A stretch of 8,848 nt of DNA from a virus (lineage: Monodnaviria > Loebvirae > Hofneiviricota > Faserviricetes > Tubulavirales > Inoviridae), in IMG/VR virus record IMGVR_UViG_2579779034_000001, one strand, 5' to 3'. Within the stretch, counting starts at the first letter, position 1. Each line of letters starts with the position of its first letter. Below are positions 1-8,848 of the stretch, piece by piece. The translations under genes and the position numbers were made by a program. The notes beneath the pieces were generated by a model that was given only the letters and a program-made list of their open reading frames with translations, was not told where the DNA came from and searched no databases.

Positions 1-32
1 ATTGGTGCGCATAATGTGCGACTCGTTATGTT
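1..32 (+). other. dif-like XerC/XerD recombination site at the left junction (hybrid attL-like)
   Basis: Positions 5-15 GGTGCGCATAA match the E. coli dif XerC arm 11/11 (dif recalled as GGTGCGCATAA-TGTATA-TTATGTTAAAT). Central 16-21 TGTGCG matches 3/6. The XerD-arm position 22-32 is degenerate (about 5/11). Confidence 0.7.
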
Positions 33-36
33 GAAA

Positions 37-69
37 AGGCCGCTGCGAAAATCGCCTCCGCAGCGGCCT
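37..69 (-). terminator. GC-rich perfect hairpin; possible terminator for the 103..1206 gene and inner stem of a folded attP
   Basis: Stem 37-47 (AGGCCGCTGCG) pairs perfectly with 59-69 (CGCAGCGGCCT), with an 11-nt loop. On the minus strand it lies just downstream of the stop of the 103..1206 gene and is followed by a short T run (plus-strand AAAA at 34-37). Confidence 0.45.
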
Positions 70-75
70 CTTTAG

Positions 76-100
76 CATAACGTCATTGTGCGAACCAATT
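76..100 (-). other. Inverted, degenerate dif-like site (attP2-like)
   Basis: Reverse complement of 76-100 is AATTGGTTCGCACAATGACGTTATG, which resembles site 1 (ATTGGTGCGCATAATGTGCGACTCGTTATG). Positions 1-16 can pair with 84-99 (14/16 Watson-Crick) and 25-30 with 76-81 (6/6). Confidence 0.45.
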
Positions 101-102
101 AA

Positions 103-1206
103 TTATTTTTTGTCTAATATAGCACTGCTTATATTAGAATTCTTAGCTGTAAAAAGCATATCTGCTTCTTGGTATATTTCACCTGAGCCACCACTAAAGT
201 TAAACTCGATGTTTAGGTCATTATAAGTAATGCTTGGAGAGTATTTTCTGCTTATTATAATATAGCCAACTGAATTTGCAGGAACCTCAACCCTTTCTTT
301 CGGTTTTTCCATAAGATATCCATTATCATTAACAAATTCAACATTGTATTTTTTATACACTCTTATTTCTTCATCATCTCTTTTCTTTTCATCTTTATAA
401 TCAAATGTATCAACATGTTCGGAAATATATTGAAAGTTTTTATATATTCTCCATCCGCCTGAAACCTTCAGTACTTCTGATGTTTTGTTAATTATTCTAA
501 ATTTGAACATTATTTGATTTTTTTCTATCTTGGCATCTATTATTTCAATAGGGTATTCATTCGCTCTTAGATTGTAATTTTCAGTTATCAGTCCATTACC
601 TATAGGATTAATCGAAAGCCCAGAATTGTACATATTGTTATAAATCATGTAGTTATATGCTTTCAAGGGGCCCGCGAGAGGGTTGTCTTCTGTTTGGATA
701 CTGATGACCATATAACTGAAAAATGCAGCAAAAATAGCACCACCTAAGATAAAAGAACCTGCACTCGGTGGCACTGAGTCTTTTGAAAGGTATGTTTTCC
801 CGTCAGTATCTTCTGATCTTATGGAAGGCATGGTACTTTTATCAAGAATTCTTGTTCCTTCAATCAAGAGCACCATGGATATTTTTTTATTTGCTAATAT
901 TCTATCTATCTTTACAAAAGAACCTTCGGTAGTTGCATCATGATCACTTGCAATTACAGTACAAGACATACCGTTTGGGACTTTTATTTCTACATTTTTT
1001 TCTTTATCCTTACCTTTATTAAATACTGATGCATTTATTACTATTGCATTGTCAGATATTGAGGTTTTACTTAAGGAGTTCCAGCAGGATAAGTAAAGTT
1101 GTCTTTTCCTAAATATAGATAAAAACTTATTGAGGACTAATGCCACAAAAAAAGAAGTAACTACTTTCAATGTATCAGTAATCAAGTCCGGCATCTTTTT
1201 TCTCAT
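103..1206 (-). CDS. Hypothetical membrane protein, 367 aa, two predicted TM helices; AT-rich phage cargo gene of unknown function
   Basis: A 367-codon ORF in DNA of roughly 32% GC (a sampled 60-nt stretch gave 19 G+C), where stop codons are frequent by chance. Hydrophobic segments at about residues 12-32 and 148-170. No catalytic motif recognised. Weak Shine-Dalgarno. Confidence 0.75.
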   Translation of the reverse strand: MRKKMPDLITDTLKVVTSFFVALVLNKFLSIFRKRQLYLSCWNSLSKTSISDNAIVINASVFNKGKDKEKNVEIKVPNGMSCTVIASDHDATTEGSFVKIDRILANKKISMVLLIEGTRILDKSTMPSIRSEDTDGKTYLSKDSVPPSAGSFILGGAIFAAFFSYMVISIQTEDNPLAGPLKAYNYMIYNNMYNSGLSINPIGNGLITENYNLRANEYPIEIIDAKIEKNQIMFKFRIINKTSEVLKVSGGWRIYKNFQYISEHVDTFDYKDEKKRDDEEIRVYKKYNVEFVNDNGYLMEKPKERVEVPANSVGYIIISRKYSPSITYNDLNIEFNFSGGSGEIYQEADMLFTAKNSNISSAILDKK

Positions 1207-1273
1207 TTTACTTAAAATCCAGTGTTTTAACTGATCAAAGATGGTCAGATAAAATGCAAAAATTTAGTATTTG

Positions 1274-1304
1274 AATATTACCCTAGTTAACCTAGGGTAA
1301 TATT
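1274..1304. promoter_or_regulatory. Perfect 13-bp inverted repeat with 5-bp spacer (operator-like palindrome) upstream of the 367-aa cargo gene
   Basis: Arm 1274-1286 AATATTACCCTAG and arm 1292-1304 CTAGGGTAATATT are exact reverse complements; spacer TTAAC. No adjacent T tract on either strand, so an operator is more likely than a terminator. Confidence 0.5.
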
Positions 1305-1310
1305 ATATCA
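1302..1310 (-). promoter_or_regulatory. Candidate extended -10 promoter element (TGATATAAT) for the 103..1206 gene
   Basis: Minus-strand sequence TGATATAAT at plus 1302-1310 fits TGnTATAAT. Its TGA is the stop codon of the upstream 139-aa gene. The palindrome 1274-1304 covers the predicted +1 region. Confidence 0.35.
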
Positions 1311-1727
1311 ATAATATGAATTTCTTCGGTGCCACCAATAAAGTAGACCGTATCCGACGATAAGAATCCCAAAAAATATCAGAGACATTCCCCAGCCAGT
1401 TCCGTACCACGAAACCATATCATCGAAAACCAACCCACCCGTTTCACGTACTCCGGCAGCTTCCTTAAGAATTGGTTTGAATACCGGAATCAGAAGGGCG
1501 ATCGCCAGTGGGGCACCCCAGCGAACAAGACCTGTTTCCATTTTGATCCCGAAAAAGATCCCCGCACCGACAACAAGCAACCAGACTATCAGGCCAGGCG
1601 CAGTTTCCAGTGCTGTTTGCCATTCAACATCGAAAGTTTTCATTAGCCAGGCAACAACTGCCAGACAGAAAGCAAATACGCCCACGACAACCAGTTCAAC
1701 GCCGCTTGTTTCGTTATTTCTACTCAT
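1308..1727 (-). CDS. Hypothetical small integral membrane protein, 139 aa, about four TM helices
   Basis: ORF with four hydrophobic stretches. Good RBS on the minus strand (AAGGA about 8 nt before the ATG). GC about 52% in a sampled stretch, clearly higher than neighbours. The antisense ORF 1477..1767 is shorter and judged spurious. Confidence 0.65.
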   Translation of the reverse strand: MSRNNETSGVELVVVGVFAFCLAVVAWLMKTFDVEWQTALETAPGLIVWLLVVGAGIFFGIKMETGLVRWGAPLAIALLIPVFKPILKEAAGVRETGGLVFDDMVSWYGTGWGMSLIFFGILIVGYGLLYWWHRRNSYY

Positions 1728-1769
1728 CCTTTTGATCCTTTTTCATTGTTCAAAATTCGCACAATAAAG

Positions 1770-1798
1770 AACGTGCAGTGTTGGTAATACTGCACGTT
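1770..1798 (-). terminator. Hairpin downstream of the 60-aa regulator gene (minus-strand terminator or attenuator)
   Basis: Perfect 10-bp stem 1770-1779 AACGTGCAGT with 1789-1798 ACTGCACGTT and a 9-nt loop. On the minus strand it is followed by CTTTATT and lies 18 nt after the stop at 1816. Confidence 0.45.
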
Positions 1799-1815
1799 TG
1801 TACCATTCGTGGTAC

Positions 1816-1998
1816 TTAATCCTTTTGTTTGGCAGACATGAGATCTTCTGCTGCATCTTTAGAGTAGTTATCAATCAGATAACCTAAAATCTCTGTCCAT
1901 GTAATTGTTTTTCCTAGTTTTACACTGGCATTTATAGCCAGTCGTTCTAGTTTCATTTTTCTTTCTTCCGTCACGTTATAAGTCGTGCGCTTTGCCAT
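1816..1998 (-). CDS. Small putative DNA-binding regulator (60 aa), divergently transcribed from gII
   Basis: 60-aa basic N-terminus (MAKRTTYNVTEERKMKLERLA). Position and orientation mirror the repressor-replication arrangement of integrative filamentous phages such as rstR-rstA in CTXphi. Function is inferred from context only. Confidence 0.5.
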   Translation of the reverse strand: MAKRTTYNVTEERKMKLERLAINASVKLGKTITWTEILGYLIDNYSKDAAEDLMSAKQKD

Positions 1999-2040
1999 TT
2001 TTTACGCTCGTTCAATGCAATATTTGAAGTGAGTATACAT

Positions 2041-2125
2041 GCTCATGAACTCATATCATCCAAGCCTCTTGAACTCACTAGCTCACTGGTGTAATGTTTA
2101 AACACTAATGAACTACTGAACTCAT
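2041..2125. promoter_or_regulatory. Divergent control region with four TGAACT(C/A)(A/C)(T/C) iterons; candidate gII promoter, operator and/or plus-strand origin
   Basis: TGAACTCAT at 2046-2054 and 2117-2125, TGAACTCAC at 2070-2078, TGAACTACT at 2109-2117, plus related GCTCACT and GCTCATG. Possible sigma70 promoter toward gII: -35 TTGAAC 2069-2074, 17-bp spacer, -10 TAATGT 2092-2097. Possible -10 TATACT on the minus strand (plus 2032-2037) for the regulator. Confidence 0.45.
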
Positions 2126-2167
2126 GTGTTAGTAAGTCGTCATTTTTGCAATTTTGAGGATTTATTC

Positions 2168-3220
2168 GTGATCGATTGGCTTACCGGGATTTTCCCTTGC
2201 ACACACAAACCGCTTCCGGCGGGGAGTGTTGTCAGCGTTGATGCTGACGGTGCAATTGAGTGGGAAACCGTTAAGCGACTGACTGTTCGCGGCTCGCATG
2301 AAGCAACGATGAAAGTACGATCGATAGGATCTAATGGCGAAGGTAAAGCGACACATTTGTACATTGATGGTAATCCTTCCAAGTTTCTGCAGGGGCATTC
2401 TGTTGTTGGGTCGGATGATATACAAGGGCTCATGTTGACGGTCTATGCCAGGATTTTATCCTTATTGAATATTCCTCATGATTTAGCGTCTTATAAAGCC
2501 GTTATGGCAGGTCAGTATAAAATTTCACGTGTTGACATTAATTACATGTATTCATTATCTACGCTGGAAAATGTCAGATCATGGCTTTATGCCGCCGAAT
2601 TTAAAGCTAAAACACGCCATGGTCGCGCATGTGGGAAAGGCGGTACAGTTTATTTAGGTAAAAACTCCCGTCGATGGAGTCTGAAATTTTATTCAAAATA
2701 TGATGAACACGTTTCTGGTAAAAAAGGGCACCAGATAGCCGAAGAGTTTGTACGAGCCGGGTTACTGGACTGGACGAAAGATAAATTACGTATTGAATTA
2801 ACATTAAGAACAACTGAGCTTATTGATTTAAATTTAACGCTTGGCGCTAACTGGAATATGAAAACACCACGTCAATTATTCTCTGAATATGTAGGGAGAA
2901 TAGAAATGAATCAGAATGCTATTTTAAGTGATGAAAAAATAACGAAACTGCCAAGAAAAATACAGTCAACTTATTTACTTTGGAAACAAGGGGCTAACAT
3001 GAAAGAAATGTTACCTCATAACACTTTTTATCGCCATAGAAGAGAATTGCTTTCGTTCGGTATCGATATTAATTTCTATTGTGATTCACCAGACTCTAAT
3101 AACGTTGTTCCGCTAATAAGAACGCTGGAAGCCAAGCCAGCGGAAATCCCCTTATGGATTTATGAGAAAGGTTTTATTTTCGATTACAACCGTATTTCGC
3201 ACGCCAGTAGCTGGCATTAA
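2168..3220 (+). CDS. gII: Replication initiation protein, pII-like rolling-circle nickase
   Basis: GTG start at 2168 preceded by RBS TGAGGA (2155-2160). N-terminus (M)IDWLTGIFPC aligns with M13 pII MIDMLVLRLPF as recalled. Internal matches PSKFLQGHSVVGSDD vs PAKVLQGHNVFGTTD and NNVVPLIR vs NNVVPLVR. The ORF track's longer start at 2126 overlaps the iterons and is less likely. Confidence 0.85.
   Translation: MIDWLTGIFPCTHKPLPAGSVVSVDADGAIEWETVKRLTVRGSHEATMKVRSIGSNGEGKATHLYIDGNPSKFLQGHSVVGSDDIQGLMLTVYARILSLLNIPHDLASYKAVMAGQYKISRVDINYMYSLSTLENVRSWLYAAEFKAKTRHGRACGKGGTVYLGKNSRRWSLKFYSKYDEHVSGKKGHQIAEEFVRAGLLDWTKDKLRIELTLRTTELIDLNLTLGANWNMKTPRQLFSEYVGRIEMNQNAILSDEKITKLPRKIQSTYLLWKQGANMKEMLPHNTFYRHRRELLSFGIDINFYCDSPDSNNVVPLIRTLEAKPAEIPLWIYEKGFIFDYNRISHASSWH
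2906..3220 (+). CDS. gX: Putative nested in-frame pX analog (C-terminal 104 aa of pII)
   Basis: In-frame ATG at 2906 (Met261 of the 2126 frame) preceded by GGGAGA. In Ff phages pX is produced from an internal start of gII. Inferred by analogy only. Confidence 0.35.
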   Translation: MNQNAILSDEKITKLPRKIQSTYLLWKQGANMKEMLPHNTFYRHRRELLSFGIDINFYCDSPDSNNVVPLIRTLEAKPAEIPLWIYEKGFIFDYNRISHASSWH

Positions 3221-3231
3221 AGGAAAGTAAT

Positions 3232-3549
3232 ATGTCTAATTATGGTCTTTTCGTTAAGGGTAAAATGTTGGGAGCCCGCCAACGTAATAAAGTTAATGGT
3301 CAGGGCTATTATAATGAAATTGGTATTGGCCTTGAAATACCTGATGGTTTTGGTGGTACAAAGCAGGATCAAATTATTATTCGAGTTTCTCAGGCTCTCG
3401 TTAACGCAGGTCTAATGAACCAGGCGAATGCTTTCATTGGGAAATTAGTTCAAATTCCTGTCTATGTCCGTGCGTGGTCAATGGAGGGTAGGGAAGGTGT
3501 AACTTATAATGTTTCTTCCGATGGTGGCATCGCAGAGATCAAAGGTTAA
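3232..3549 (+). CDS. gV: Putative ssDNA-binding protein (pV-like)
   Basis: 105-aa ORF immediately after gII with RBS AGGAAAG. The position is conserved in Ff phages; similarity to M13 pV is weak (an R/K-rich segment followed by GxYxNE). Confidence 0.6.
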   Translation: MSNYGLFVKGKMLGARQRNKVNGQGYYNEIGIGLEIPDGFGGTKQDQIIIRVSQALVNAGLMNQANAFIGKLVQIPVYVRAWSMEGREGVTYNVSSDGGIAEIKG

Positions 3550-3551
3550 AT

Positions 3552-3638
3552 ATGGACGATGTTATTCAAATTTTGATAGCGTCTGGCATCGTTATTTCTT
3601 TTGGCCTCGGCGCGATTACTGCGGGGGTCTTTCGTTAA
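3552..3638 (+). CDS. gVII: Minor coat protein pVII-like (28 aa)
   Basis: MDDVIQILIASGIVISFGLGAITAGVFR resembles the M13 pVII C-terminal part (IQISVVLCFALGIIAGGQR). Stop overlaps the next start (TAATG). Confidence 0.7.
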   Translation: MDDVIQILIASGIVISFGLGAITAGVFR

Positions 3639-3733
3639 TGTATATCGTTTATTTCTTCGGGGCTTATACCTTTGGTTTTGCCCTTTTCTATGCGGTCGGT
3701 TCATTTAAATCATTTTCTGACCGATTAATGTAA
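3638..3733 (+). CDS. gIX: Minor coat protein pIX-like (31 aa)
   Basis: MYIVYFFGAYTFGFALFYAVGSFKSFSDRLM resembles M13 pIX (MSVLVYSFASFVLGWCLRSGITYFTRLMETSS). ATG overlaps the gVII stop. The 3509..3733 track ORF is the same frame extended upstream and is rejected. Confidence 0.72.
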   Translation: MYIVYFFGAYTFGFALFYAVGSFKSFSDRLM

Positions 3734-3752
3734 CCTTAATGGAGTTATTCCT

Positions 3753-3995
3753 ATGAAAATTCTGTCTACTGTTAAATATAAAGTTGCTCTGGCTTCAACT
3801 GCGCTTTTTATTTCTGCAAGTTCTTTTGCGGCTGAAGGCGCTACAGGTGGTACTGATTATGCAGGCCAGGCAATGGATGCTTTGTTGACTCAGGCAAATG
3901 ATCTCATTGGTAAAGTATGGCCTGTTGTTGTGGCTGTGGTTGGCGCTGGGCTTGCCATTCGTATTTTCAAAAAATTCTCTTCAAAAGCGGTTTGA
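3753..3995 (+). CDS. gVIII: Major coat protein pVIII precursor (80 aa, signal peptide plus mature coat)
   Basis: Signal peptide ending SFA followed by AEG, an amphipathic and hydrophobic core, and a basic C-terminus KKFSSKAV, closely paralleling M13 pVIII (SFA-AEGDDP ... KLFKKFTSKAS). Confidence 0.95.
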
Positions 3996-4004
3996 ATTTC
4001 ACTC

Positions 4005-4028
4005 AGGGGCACTCGTTGCCCCTTTATT
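4005..4028 (+). terminator. Rho-independent terminator after gVIII
   Basis: Stem 4005-4011 AGGGGCA pairs with 4017-4023 TGCCCCT, 5-nt loop, followed by TTATT. Ff phages have a terminator at this position. Confidence 0.55.
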
Positions 4029-4041
4029 AAAGCGGGTTACT

Positions 4042-5358
4042 ATGAAAAGGAAAATATTAATTCTTTCCGCTGTCCTCATTTCTCCTTTTTCACATGCTGA
4101 GTCATGGGAAAGCATTACTAAATCCACTTATCAAAGTTCTGCCTACGCTGAAAGTAAGCAAATAACCAATCAGGATGGCTCTAAGACAACGGTTTACTAT
4201 ATTGATGCTGCTATGCAGGCCTCCGCTTGTCAGGGTGCTAAATCCAGTGCTCAGAGTGTATTTACTCGGGTTAAACCAACTTATGAGGGTATCTGGCCTG
4301 ATTCTGAATTCCGTCTTGTTTTTACTGGTGATTGTACTTACAGCGATTCACCAGGGCAGAAGGATAAATATTGGTCTTTAACGGCTTATATTGTTGGTAA
4401 TATTCAGCGTTCTGTTCCTGATGAAAAACCTACTGACCCGACACCAGAAGAAATTTGTGAAGCGAAGCCGCCAGAAGAAGGTGTATTTAATAATGTTGAT
4501 TCATATGATGGTGGTCGCTATATCTACTATAACGGCTGTGAATATGAGGCTACTGGTGTCATTGTTTGTCAGGGTGATGGTACTGTTTGCGCTGCAACAT
4601 GGAAGCCTACAGGTGCTGTAGCTGACCCCTCTGATAAACCCTCAACCCCCCAAAATGGCGGTGGTGAGTCCGGTGGTGGTGAGTCCGGTGGTGGTGAGTC
4701 CGGTGGTGGTGAGTCCGGTGGTGGTGAGTCCGGTGGTGGTGAGTCTGGCGGTGGTGAGTCTGGCGGCGGTAGTTCTGGCGGTAGTTCTGGCGGTAGTTCT
4801 GGCGGTAGTTCTGGCGGTGGCTCTAGTGGTTCCAGTCTTTCTAAAGGTGATATTCAGTCTGCGATCGAAGGTGCTTCACCCAAAATAGCCAGCGATATTC
4901 ATGATAAATTAACGGAGAAAGACACTTCATCAGATGATAAAAAAAATGCCGATGAACAAACCAGGAATAATATAAATCGTCTTGACGATTCCATTAACAA
5001 TCTTACGCGGGGGGCTGGCCGTTTTGCTGACCCTTCAGGTGGTGATTCTCGTTATGGAAAGGGCGACTCTGAATTAGATGGCGCTTCTACTTTAGCTGAT
5101 TCTGAATTGGGAATTGAAAAGGATTCTCACGGTGCTTTATGGGAAGCATTTTTAAATAAAGGTGCTATGCTGCCTAATTTGCCCAATGGTAACGGCTGCT
5201 CTGATTTTATTATTTTCCCCGGAGAGGTTTATCAGATTGATATTGGTTGCGATAAATTACTGACTATTAAAGATGTTCTTTCATGGGTTTTTTATTGCCT
5301 TACTTTCTGGTATGTCTTTACTTCTTTAACTTCATTGCTTCGCAAAGGGGGTGAGTGA
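4042..5358 (+). CDS. gIII: Minor coat / adsorption protein pIII (438 aa)
   Basis: Signal peptide [19 protein letters not shown]. Cys-rich segment [26 protein letters not shown] resembles M13 N1 (YEGCLWNATGVVVCTGDETQCYGTW). Gly/Ser-rich linker. C-terminus IDIGCDKL...[17 protein letters not shown] resembles M13 (IDCDKINLFRGV...FMYVFSTFANILRNKES). First ATG after the gVIII terminator. Confidence 0.9.
4657..4836 (+). repeat. In-frame tandem repeats encoding the pIII Gly-rich linker (seven 15-bp GGGES units, then 12- and 15-bp GGSS/GGGSS units)
   Basis: Seven 15-bp units GG(C/T)GGTGGTGAGTC(C/T) from 4657 to 4761, then GGCGGCGGTAGTTCT, three GGCGGTAGTTCT units (4777-4812), and a degenerate tail to 4836. 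Confidence 0.9.
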
Positions 5359-5699
5359 TGCCTTTATTATTAGGTATTCCTGCATTGTTGCGTTTTCTTA
5401 TTGGTCTTGTTCCTTTGTTTATTGGCTATGTGGCGAGTTTTTTAGCTCGACTTGCTACCAGAACAGGATTAATCGCCTTTGCATTGGTCGCATTAATTAC
5501 AACAACTGTTACGCTTTTAATGCAGTACCTTGCTGAGGTCATGTATAACGGTTTACCTGCTGATTTCTCCCATTTAATGGCGTCTGTATTGCCTGACCAT
5601 TTTCAGGCGTGTGTTAACGTTATTATGGTTACTCGTATCAGTGTTTTTGTTTTCGATTTAAAACAAAAATTTCTTGATTATGCAAACAGGGTGATTTAA
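5358..5699 (+). CDS. gVI: Minor coat protein pVI (113 aa)
   Basis: [24 protein letters not shown] closely matches the M13 pVI N-terminus (MPVLLGIPLLLRFLGF) and FDLKQK matches FDVKQK. ATG overlaps the gIII stop (TGATG). Strong RBS AAGGGGGTGAG. Confidence 0.92.
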   Translation: MPLLLGIPALLRFLIGLVPLFIGYVASFLARLATRTGLIAFALVALITTTVTLLMQYLAEVMYNGLPADFSHLMASVLPDHFQACVNVIMVTRISVFVFDLKQKFLDYANRVI

Positions 5700-6794
5700 A
5701 TGGCGGTTTATGTAGTAACAGGCAAATTAGGCTCAGGCAAGACACTTGTTAGTGTTTCCAGAATACAGGAAAGACTTGCTAAGGGTTGTCCTGTTGCCAC
5801 TAATCTTGATCTTAAATTGCATAATATGCCTATGGTTGGGCGTTATGCGAAAAAAACGCGCGTTATTCGCATTCCTGACAAGCCTTCATTAAATGATTTA
5901 CTTGCTATTGGTACTGGGAATACATCTTACGATGAATCCCGTAATGGCCTCCTTGTACTTGATGAATGTGGTACTTGGTTTAATTCCCGCTCATGGGGTG
6001 ATAAAGACAGACAACCTGTTATTGACTGGTTTTTACATGCCAGAAAATTAGGCTGGGATATTATATTTTTGATTCAGGATATTTCGATAATGGATAAGCA
6101 AGCTCGTCTGGCGCTTGCTGAGCATGTTGTTTATTGTCGCCGTTCAGATAAATTAAACATTCCTTTTGTTGGCTCCATTATGAATTTGGTTTCAGGGGCG
6201 AGATTTTCTTTACCAAAGGTACACTTTGGCATTGTCAAATATGGTGATAATGTTAATTCAATCACTGTTGATAAATGGATATATACAGGAAAATCTCTTT
6301 ATTCTGCTTACAATACCAAACAAGCGTTCACAGATAATTATCCTCATGGCGCATTTTCGCTTTTGCCACCATTTATCACGCACGGTCAATTTTCTGTTCA
6401 CAGAGGATTTAATTATTATATGCGCCTCACTAAAATTTATTTTCGCAAATCGAACCGTCTTATATTAATGCTTTCTTTTTTGGCGCTGGGGCTTGCGTTT
6501 GGTTTCTGGCTCCAGTCTGGAAAGAATGTTGATGAAATCTCAGCTATTAAATCTGCTTATGCTGAACAGGCGAGGGCGGTAACGCCTGATTCGTCCAGTG
6601 ACTTACCCCGACTTTCTATTAATTCTTTTTCACAACTTGGCTTTGACGTTTCCGTTACGTTTGTTGATGCAAAAGGTATGAAATATCAGTATTTTGATTT
6701 GATTAAAGATGGTTATTCCGTTGATATTAAAGATGCCTGTCGTGTTGTTATTAGAAAAGGCCGTTATTTACAGACTGTTACCTGTCAGGAGTAA
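5700..6794 (+). CDS. gI: Assembly ATPase pI (Zot-like), 364 aa
   Basis: Walker A GKLGSGKT and Walker B LLVLDECG. Long near-identical stretches to M13 pI as recalled (MAVYVVTGKLGSGKTLVSV, RQPVIDWFLHARKLGWDIIFLIQD, LAEHVVYCRR). C-terminal TM segment. Confidence 0.95.
   Translation: MAVYVVTGKLGSGKTLVSVSRIQERLAKGCPVATNLDLKLHNMPMVGRYAKKTRVIRIPDKPSLNDLLAIGTGNTSYDESRNGLLVLDECGTWFNSRSWGDKDRQPVIDWFLHARKLGWDIIFLIQDISIMDKQARLALAEHVVYCRRSDKLNIPFVGSIMNLVSGARFSLPKVHFGIVKYGDNVNSITVDKWIYTGKSLYSAYNTKQAFTDNYPHGAFSLLPPFITHGQFSVHRGFNYYMRLTKIYFRKSNRLILMLSFLALGLAFGFWLQSGKNVDEISAIKSAYAEQARAVTPDSSSDLPRLSINSFSQLGFDVSVTFVDAKGMKYQYFDLIKDGYSVDIKDACRVVIRKGRYLQTVTCQE
6420..6794 (+). CDS. gXI: Putative nested pXI (in-frame internal start of gI)
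   Basis: In-frame ATG at 6420 (Met241 of pI), the same position as the M13 pXI start (MKLTKIYLKK vs MRLTKIYFRK here), followed by the TM segment. Confidence 0.45.
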   Translation: MRLTKIYFRKSNRLILMLSFLALGLAFGFWLQSGKNVDEISAIKSAYAEQARAVTPDSSSDLPRLSINSFSQLGFDVSVTFVDAKGMKYQYFDLIKDGYSVDIKDACRVVIRKGRYLQTVTCQE

Positions 6795-6801
6795 TATTAT
6801 T

Positions 6802-8067
6802 ATGCGCTCTGTTATTGTTGCTTTTTTATTTGCCTGTTCATTCTGCGTTTCTGCTGAAACTGTTAATTTAAATAATTCATCTGTTCGCTCATTTGTTCAG
6901 TGGTATTCTTCAAAAACTGGCAAGCCTGTTATTGTTAATCCTGATATTAAAGGAAACGTAACCGTATTTAATGCTGATGTTAATCCAACAAATATTGATG
7001 ATTTCTTTAAGTCTGTTCTGAATGCTAACGGTTTTGTCATGCTTTCTGGCAATCCTGCGGTAGTCTCTTTGCCGTCTAAATTACCTTCACAGATGGTTTC
7101 GGATTCCGATGATTCTGATAACCAGTCTTATGATACTTTTCCTTCTGAGCCATCTTACCAGCCAGTACCTGTAGCGCTTACGGTCAGAAATTTTAAGCTG
7201 ACAAAAGTTAGATCGTCCGATGTTCAGCAACTGATTAAAATTTATCTTGATTCTAATGGTGGTGGTAATGTCGTGGATTATCCAGGCAATAACTCGCTGA
7301 TTGTTTCTGCGCCTGACGAGCTGCTGCCGGTTCTGTCCGATTTTATCAATTCTGTGGATGTTGCCCGCGATCAGGTTCTCATTCAGTCGCTGATGTTTGA
7401 AACCAGCTTGTCTGATGGCGTTGATTTATCGTTTGCGGCAGGTTCTGCATCCGGTCATAAGGTTGCGGGGGGCTTTAATACTTCTGCACTGGGTAGCGCT
7501 CTTTCTACGGCGGGCGGTTCTTTTGGTATTTTTGATGGTAACGTGTTGGCGCTGTCTCTGCGTGCTGTCCAGAGTAATTCACGCTCTAAGGTGATTTCAA
7601 CGCCGCGTATTCTTACTCAGTCTGGTCAGACTGGTTACATTTCCGTAGGTAAGAATGTGCCGTTTATCACCGGAAAGGTAACGGGCGAATCTGCCGGGGT
7701 AAATAATCCGTTTCAGACTATCGAGCGTCATGATGTTGGTGTTTCTCTCAAGGTAACGCCTGTTGTCATGGGTAACGGGCAACTAGTTCTGACTATCGAC
7801 ACTCGTGCTGATTCAATCAGCAATGATGATCAGGCATCCGATATTATTACTAATCAGCGCCAGATTCAGACGACAGTCCAGATTAAGGATGGTCAGACGT
7901 TGTTATTGGGGGGGCTTATCGATTCATCGTTCAGCAATGCCGAGCGTTCAGTTCCAGTTATAAGTAAAATTCCTCTTATAGGCTGGATTTTCAGTAGCAA
8001 GGCAGACAGCAATGAACAGCGTATTATGTATATTTTGCTTACAGCACATATCATTCGTCCACTTTGA
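6802..8067 (+). CDS. gIV: Secretin pIV (outer-membrane export channel), 421 aa
   Basis: Signal peptide MRSVIVAFLFACSFCVSA. Strong secretin-domain similarity to M13 pIV (for example SVGKNVPFITGKVTGESAGVNNPFQTIER vs SVGQNVPFITGRVTGESANVNNPFQTIER, DGQTLLLGGL, SKIPLIG). RBS AGGAG. The upstream ATG at 6709 would overlap gI and lacks a signal peptide. Confidence 0.95.
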   Translation: MRSVIVAFLFACSFCVSAETVNLNNSSVRSFVQWYSSKTGKPVIVNPDIKGNVTVFNADVNPTNIDDFFKSVLNANGFVMLSGNPAVVSLPSKLPSQMVSDSDDSDNQSYDTFPSEPSYQPVPVALTVRNFKLTKVRSSDVQQLIKIYLDSNGGGNVVDYPGNNSLIVSAPDELLPVLSDFINSVDVARDQVLIQSLMFETSLSDGVDLSFAAGSASGHKVAGGFNTSALGSALSTAGGSFGIFDGNVLALSLRAVQSNSRSKVISTPRILTQSGQTGYISVGKNVPFITGKVTGESAGVNNPFQTIERHDVGVSLKVTPVVMGNGQLVLTIDTRADSISNDDQASDIITNQRQIQTTVQIKDGQTLLLGGLIDSSFSNAERSVPVISKIPLIGWIFSSKADSNEQRIMYILLTAHIIRPL

Positions 8068-8831: not shown

Positions 8832-8848
8832 ATTGGTGCGCATAATGT
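8832..8848 (+). other. Start of the right-junction dif site (XerC arm), truncated by the window end
   Basis: ATTGGTGCGCATAATGT is identical to 1-17. GGTGCGCATAA-TGT is the beginning of the canonical dif core. Confidence 0.7.

Follow-up and report, generated by a model that had tools for sequence, protein, structure and literature searches.

A position-fixed membrane-protein gene beside a variable cargo slot in a dif-integrated filamentous prophage of Escherichia coli

Filamentous prophages of the CUS-1/YpfPhi type have been linked to the fitness of invasive Escherichia coli K1 and Yersinia pestis (PMC4266046). Adjacent to attL they carry open reading frames (ORFs) of unknown function, YPO2271 and YPO2272 in YpfPhi and orf1 and orf1a in CUS-1, which differ between phages, and YpfPhi lysogens are partly protected against superinfection (PMC4266046). 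When ten inovirus hypothetical proteins were tested in Pseudomonas, two of them gave exclusion (PMC6813254). The prophage described here resembles YpfPhi and CUS-1 in being a dif-integrated enterobacterial inovirus found as tandem copies, with a gene in the repressor position (the RstR-like YPO2273 in the known system) and two leftward ORFs between that gene and attL, these ORFs being likened by position and not by sequence. There is also a difference: both YpfPhi/CUS-1 ORFs are treated as variable (PMC4266046), whereas in the present family variation is limited to the distal ORF, and the one next to the repressor gene is constant. What might a constant gene be doing at such a place?

The window, by which is meant the whole stretch of 8848 nt analysed here, is a single complete unit of a filamentous (Inoviridae) E. 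coli prophage integrated at dif. It is a temperate unit of the CUS-1/YpfPhi kind, with integration at dif via the host Xer system; its features are collected in Table 1. The left arm is 100% identical in E. coli AZ184, and the core genes are annotated by RefSeq in the identical AZ184 prophage. Pfam matches to Phage_CRI and G2P_X_C are obtained for gII, and two small ORFs 3' of gIV close the rightward gene set. Three genes, orf60, orf139 and orf367, run leftward; in sister prophages a 148/149-aa HTH_3/CI-type repressor takes the place of orf60. In complete E. coli genomes the same element adjoins hipBA as tandem copies, and in these arrays the canonical dif (GGTGCGCATAATGTATATTATGTTAAAT) stands at the right end, with the hybrid site at the left ends and between copies. 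The hairpin that overlaps the hybrid site also resembles an intrinsic terminator at the end of the leftward operon. In AZ184 a 'fimA' annotation beside the prophage led us to consider integration at the fim switch, which was rejected: the same fimbrial-like gene adjoins dif/hipA in UTI89 and a canonical dif is found at the right prophage end, and integration is thus of the ordinary dif kind.

Table 1. Features of the window and of compared loci (labels beginning with L are our own for the loci compared)
Feature	Position	Strand	Remarks
Prophage end	1-105	none	Xer site and hairpin; kept in all sister prophages, 89-95% conserved
Hybrid dif-like Xer site	4-37		GGTGCGCATAA TGTGCG ACTCG TTATGTTGAAA
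Hairpin, 24-nt arms	24-82		GC-rich, followed by U run; 3' of orf367; overlaps Xer site; -38.5 kcal/mol, z -6.9
orf367	103-1206	-	phrog_17621, family of unknown function
Exchangeable cargo cassette	106-1305	-	orf367 and palindrome 1274-1304; swapped out in sister prophages
Cargo slot, further examples	L013 2602-3531; L015 2603-3674; L014 2601-3355; L038 7446-8552		Same slot as window 106-1305
Perfect 13-bp palindrome	1274-1304		3' of orf139 stop; part of orf367 cassette
orf139 and 100-nt leader	1306-1826		About 95% conserved; occurs with either repressor type
orf139	1308-1727	-	139 aa; phrog_4174; predicted four-helix inner-membrane protein
Antisense shadow ORF	1477-1767	+	96 codons, TTG start; third codon position shared with orf139
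Conserved leader	1728-1826	-	5' of orf139; two hairpins, 1800-1815 and 1770-1798
orf60	1816-1998	-	Small protein in repressor position, divergent from gII; phrog_2503
Repressor gene and control region	1827-2168		Alternative alleles in sister prophages
Inovirus core	2126-8067	+	gII, gV, gVIII, gIII, gVI, gI/Zot, gIV
gII and rest of prophage	2169 onward		Kept in sister prophages
XerC arm of next site	8835-8848		Right end of window

Relatives of the window, or of parts of it, are present in a variety of other records. In the second tandem copy of AZ184 (L001, 15568-18494) an ISEcp1-family insertion splits the secretin gene gIV. NZ_CP128883.1 (L002; 9565 bp, circular) bears the label 'untypable plasmid' in its database record but represents the replicative form of a sister inovirus in which orf139 is present and orf367 frameshifted, and a Klebsiella pneumoniae IncFIB/HI1B plasmid (L005) carries the same phage type as a tandem insertion. 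JARKOR010000214.1 (L006), binned under 'Candidatus Nanosynbacter', holds an E. coli-type prophage with most genes at 97-100% protein identity and gIII at 92%; this is almost certainly a binning error of a metagenome-assembled genome. The left-arm search found 462 of its 841 places on plasmids. A segment of about 70 nt, corresponding to window positions 27-101 and made up of XerD-arm-like sequence and the GC-rich terminator hairpin, is matched at 87-96% in several hundred plasmid records of E. coli (ColV-type and other plasmids), in which nothing is annotated at the match. These plasmid copies may have been left behind by Xer-site integration, or plasmids and prophage may share a terminator.

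How far does base composition set the left-arm genes apart? From sampled 60-nt stretches, the preliminary description had put G+C at about 52% in orf139, 32% in orf367 and 43% in the core, and had read the three values as three compositional regimes that point to stepwise acquisition of cargo from different sources. It had also allowed that proper computation might show uniform composition. Computation shows a non-uniform one (three-way chi-square for orf139, orf367 and core, p = 2e-10), but only part of the earlier picture survives. The estimate for orf367 holds (31.8%), the core (2126-8067, taken as the reference) is at 41.3%, and orf139 as a whole gene is at 47.4%, with about 52% reached only at its centre (seven non-overlapping 60-nt windows give 0.37, 0.45, 0.50, 0.53, 0.57, 0.45 and 0.45). 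Moreover, orf139 does not stand clearly outside the range of the core: the difference has a p of 0.017, and its G+C is equalled or exceeded by 12.9% of 420-nt core windows, the matching ones being the Gly-rich linker of gIII together with gIV. The AT-rich cargo gene orf367 is the single clear compositional outlier (chi-square against the core, p = 3e-9), as no 1104-nt core window is so AT-rich (minimum 36.6%).

Much of the contrast between the two genes resides in the proteins they encode. Recoding of the proteins with the core's own codon usage gives an expected G+C of 43.8% for orf139 and 33.9% for orf367; about 10 of the 15.7 points between them, roughly two thirds, are therefore amino-acid composition, the one protein being rich in Gly, Val, Leu, Ala and Trp (45% Gly+Val+Leu+Ala and eight Trp in orf139) and the other in Lys, Asn, Ile and Ser. 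The G+C residual after amino-acid correction has a z of +2.8 for orf139, -2.5 for orf367, +4.4 for gIV and +2.8 for orf77, and GC3 of orf139 is 0.44 where 0.36 is expected (z about 2). The rise in G+C over orf139 is thus mild and mainly a by-product of a Gly/Val/Leu/Ala/Trp-rich membrane protein, with a small excess at the codon level. This residual excess, together with a GC3 of 0.53-0.56 in distant plasmid homologues, is compatible with a foreign origin at an earlier date. G+C is highest (62%) elsewhere in the window, at 4600-4900 in gIII, where the attachment protein has its (GGGES)n/(GGSS)n linker; the repeat number of this linker varies by strain (438 aa in the window, 443 aa in AZ184). 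There is a general caution here: unless amino-acid composition has been allowed for, high G+C over the gene of a small membrane protein says little about foreign origin.

Is orf139 then a 'moron', acquired separately from a GC-richer donor, in a left arm assembled stepwise from three sources? The raw three-way difference in G+C and the GC3 value speak for this, hairpins flank the gene on both sides, and the plasmid- and transposon-borne members would allow an ancient capture by an inovirus ancestor. Against it stand the share of the contrast that is amino-acid composition, the core windows that are as GC-rich and the larger deviation of gIV, itself a core gene; furthermore, the downstream hairpin belongs to the orf367 cassette and not to orf139. 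The comparison with sister prophages weighs most heavily. By blastn, from which the left-arm blocks of Table 1 were defined, homology ends at about 103-105 and restarts at 1306. Among 5426 complete E. coli genomes orf139 is present in 158, at 299 places, and the gII/gV module in 165, at 331 places (the two being compared as totals), whereas the full left arm with both orf367 and orf139 is found in 17 genomes only. The gene follows directly after the repressor gene in 23 of 23 IMG/VR inovirus contigs and in all E. coli prophages inspected, with 88-100% protein identity among the IMG/VR contigs and RefSeq loci. It is there with every combination of two unrelated virion/assembly modules and two gII (replication) types, behind at least three repressor types (orf60, the 148/149-aa HTH_3/CI-type and a 35-39%-identical HTH) and ahead of at least 11 cargo sets. 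From such comparisons orf139 behaves as a constant anchor, a fixed backbone gene of the leftward, repressor-side arm and not cargo in this lineage, and orf367 as one of many exchangeable cargos. The patchy presence among close relatives that a moron would display is not seen, and a separate acquisition of orf139 in the manner described is considered unlikely. Of the stepwise model, what stands is that the region is a mosaic with an exchangeable AT-rich neighbour; orf139, which varies less than any other element of the left arm while the prophages are otherwise reshuffled, drops out as the cargo of a third source.

The two genes are also found apart, which the preliminary description had proposed to look for: orf139 occurs without orf367 in most related prophages, and orf367 relatives without orf139 occur in a Providencia inovirus and on an Enterobacter plasmid. 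In the former, from Providencia rettgeri (L045, 5651-7074), a 37%-identical relative comes right after a 63-aa ORF, and the replication protein is of the Phage_GPA type. In the latter, from Enterobacter asburiae (L044), a 45%-identical relative is situated in an accessory region of a plasmid-like contig. Each of these orf367 relatives is preceded by an ORF of 63-74 aa.

In otherwise near-identical prophages, at least 11 unrelated cargo sets occupy the slot that separates orf139 from the dif-like site, and all sets inspected are AT-rich (31-38% G+C). A domain search with orf367 gave no match, and UTI89 has a 29%-identical allele of it in the same slot. Other occupants carry recognizable domains: AbiJ_NTD4 with DUF7014 (PADLOC PDC-S32), a DpnII/MboI-type restriction endonuclease (PADLOC Aga_Helical-REase, PDC-S35) with DUF6953, a CAP12/Pycsar-type TIR domain and a PDC-S64-like zinc ribbon. 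By its contents the slot looks like a defence hot spot in a filamentous prophage of about 9 kb. The cargo is exchanged by recombination in its two conserved flanks, orf139 with its leader on one side and the attP/terminator segment on the other.

Could orf139 be a partner of the cargo? It would then be a membrane effector or toxin joined to the defence-type genes, either as a shared pore-forming or abortive-infection effector or as an addiction toxin held in check by the repressor-like protein next to it. CBASS and Pycsar do include small multi-TM effectors, and defence-type genes do occupy the downstream slot. In addition, an IncHI2 plasmid (L003) carries a CBASS operon with a 35%-identical homologue some 590 bp upstream, and another homologue comes after a ThiF-domain gene in Tn7-like cargo. 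That CBASS operon, however, already has its own SAVED effector, and only this one distant homologue is near a CBASS operon; PADLOC gives no match for orf139, and no cyclase is found in the window. The cargo sets are unrelated to one another, and several look self-contained, e.g. the AbiJ-like protein, the TIR protein and the nuclease. There is no fixed partner, as orf139 stays unchanged when repressor type or cargo changes. A distant relative is also found beside IS1595, and a scan of the genes neighbouring the distant homologues for a recurrent partner returned no Pfam matches of note. A role joined to the cargo is judged decidedly unlikely.

On the coordinates of orf139 there is an ORF on either strand, and the preliminary description had raised the possibility that the plus-strand ORF at 1477-1767 is the real gene, the minus-strand one being spurious. 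This ORF is open in close relatives, but such openness follows from the third codon position that it has in common with orf139; for the same reason codon-position periodicity alone cannot part sense from antisense, and the question was decided by distant homologues and dN/dS. Every homologue can be aligned in an open sense frame, even the plasmid-borne members of 35% and 31% identity, in which all antisense frames are interrupted (that of 1477-1767 is broken in L003 and L004, both distant homologues). In pairwise comparisons the sense frame has a dN/dS of 0.04-0.15; read over the same bases, the antisense frame gives about double that value. The plus-strand ORF starts with TTG and has no family match in Pfam and PHROG searches. 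Variable columns at orf139 codon positions 1, 2 and 3 number 28, 16 and 77, RefSeq genomes annotate orf139 as a CDS, and the motifs PLAIALLIPVFKPILKEAAG and WYGTGWGM are conserved across Enterobacterales. These data identify orf139, by all signs in the alignments, as a real gene under strong purifying selection, and a gene on the other strand is extremely improbable.

Two further observations concern the reading frame. The protein database has many fragments of orf139 from complete E. coli genomes, 77-87 aa long and matching one or the other half at 93-100% identity; they suggest frameshifted or interrupted copies in some prophages, where disruption may be tolerated. Upstream, an ORF of eight codons (MKKDQKDE; minus strand, 1720-1746, start at 1746) has a stop that overlaps orf139 codons 2-3, and translational coupling between the two is possible.

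The four-TM character noted from the start is borne out by two methods. Hydropathy gives four hydrophobic segments, at about 10-29, 43-61, 66-87 and 111-132, and the AF2 model from a deeper alignment has helices at 5-32, 36-62, 67-90 and 111-137 (mean pLDDT 75.6), the third of which is kinked at the invariant P73, P81 and P85. The protein is thus predicted to have four membrane helices. An N-in/C-in topology fits the charge distribution and the positive-inside rule, and with it the conserved loops FDVxWQTALETAP and KPILKEAAGVRE...WYGTGWG would be periplasmic. What family does it belong to? The phrog_4174 HMM matches over the full length (E 3.3e-84, 281 bits, residues 1-139 on profile positions 1-139 of 140), and this family carries no functional annotation. 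Pfam, NCBIfam and PADLOC searches with orf139 and 26 family members gave no match, nor did a PDB sequence search with orf139, and fold searches returned generic helical bundles only. The family is small: an exhaustive HMM search of 1.84 billion representatives gave 41 clusters at 50% identity, none annotated, and the named members are all Enterobacterales. A literature search on the names YPO2271-2273 and on inovirus defence hot spots found no functional data on orf139.

A 38%-identical member (L043) lies between two small ORFs in a divergent inovirus, with secretin and Zot genes on the same contig; the small ORF 5' of it has no similarity to orf60. A tblastn search of 50,697 deposited phage genomes, Ff, IKe and PEar among them, found no match to orf139. 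The distant relatives outside inoviruses are on plasmids and transposons, in places without phage genes.

How might orf139 be expressed? The leader is structured. The hairpin at 1770-1798 is followed by UCUUUAUU on the minus-strand RNA (inverted repeat I3), and the two hairpins together reach -21 kcal/mol (RNA fold, z -3.9). In the hairpin at 1800-1815 two base pairs differ between repressor types in a compensatory manner (GUACCA/UGGUAC vs GUCUCA/UGAGAC); the hairpin at 1770-1798 does not vary among E. coli-type phages, and more distant relatives have other hairpins in its place. From sequence and fold the two have the look of a terminator or attenuator that separates orf139 from the repressor gene, but they could equally be phage ssDNA signals, e.g. 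a complementary-strand origin, and not RNA terminators. In a promoter scan no sigma-70-like promoter stands out, the match count equalling the shuffled expectation. We infer a single leftward operon of repressor, orf139 and cargo with an attenuating leader: orf139 would be cotranscribed with the repressor gene from a leftward promoter and hence made in the lysogen, and the structured leader may attenuate read-through into it. The hairpins could, on the other hand, terminate the repressor transcript 5' of orf139.

A lysogen-expressed role in exclusion appears the most likely function, because orf139 is confined to repressor-bearing inoviruses, is encoded on the repressor-side strand and does not co-vary with any module. 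The distant relatives in accessory and defence regions of plasmids and transposons lead to the same view, as do the lysogen protection and the inovirus exclusion proteins cited above. The preferred reading of the whole, that orf139 is a prophage backbone gene with a protein-driven G+C, expressed in the lysogen and with a tentative, generic exclusion role, is on balance probable. The specific functional proposal, taken alone, is less likely than not, though placed ahead of its rivals: a generic superinfection-exclusion or entry-blocking factor of the inner membrane that acts through a host component. Residing there, orf139 would block incoming filamentous phages and possibly other phages. A host component is favoured over a phage-specific one because the sequence of orf139 does not co-vary with virion or immunity modules. 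The membrane localisation expected of the exclusion class is found for orf139 as a prediction, and searches of Pfam, NCBIfam, PADLOC and PDB sequences and of folds gave no homology that links it to exclusion.

Could the protein instead serve the phage's own life cycle, as a membrane factor of replication, Xer-mediated integration/excision or assembly that does not protect the host? The near-universal presence of orf139 in the prophage group, the strong purifying selection and the adjoining regulatory region are compatible with this. Yet presence across inoviruses and a link to a virion/assembly module, the marks of an inovirus core gene, are not found: none of the deposited phage genomes, Ff, IKe and PEar included, has orf139, which is independent of virion/assembly and replication module type and is missing from the Providencia inovirus with the orf367 relative. 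The relatives free of phage genes and the coding on the repressor-side strand also argue against it, and a life-cycle factor is very unlikely. A holin-like role, also mentioned in the preliminary description, is unlikely since orf139 has no match to Pfam or PHROG holin HMMs and no endolysin-like ORF is found in the window of this non-lytic phage; a single holin appears in the BFVD fold list, with E = 3.9. Filamentous phages leave the host cell without lysing it (PMC4266046).

What would follow? The finding on composition is ordinary; a position-fixed, uncharacterised membrane protein beside a hot spot of defence cargo is moderately interesting. The left arm points to a small and tractable hot spot in a phage of about 9 kb, and orf139 offers a concrete candidate for the partial superinfection protection that has been reported. 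It might further be speculated that orf139 (phrog_4174) is a previously unrecognised protein of broad exclusion or defence, which forms a 'protection arm' with the slot, and whose distant plasmid and transposon members do the same job; this is a doubtful prospect at present. If true, a constant membrane factor and a variable defence gene would be paired at dif in about 3% of E. coli genomes, and the distant members would be at the same work on plasmids and transposons beside defence islands.

How does this compare with known exclusion proteins and hot spots? PfsE of the Pseudomonas Pf phages is a superinfection-exclusion protein of some 30 aa that has a single TM helix; its gene belongs to the rightward core operon, and the target of the protein is the type IV pilus protein PilC. 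It resembles orf139 in being a conserved inner-membrane protein encoded by an inovirus prophage, a functional analogy that is not based on sequence. SieA of P22 and other inner-membrane exclusion proteins of tailed phages are expressed from the prophage and block DNA entry of superinfecting phages (PMC10883804). SieA exemplifies the class proposed for orf139, although it comes from a tailed phage, and tblastn detected no similarity to orf139 among the 50,697 phage genomes. Temperate phages and satellites such as P2/P4 have variable hot spots for defence cargo. The cargo slot is similar to these in that conserved anchors flank unrelated, AT-rich, defence-type genes in near-identical elements; it differs in that the putative hot spot is in a filamentous prophage of about 9 kb, between a conserved membrane-protein gene and the Xer site.
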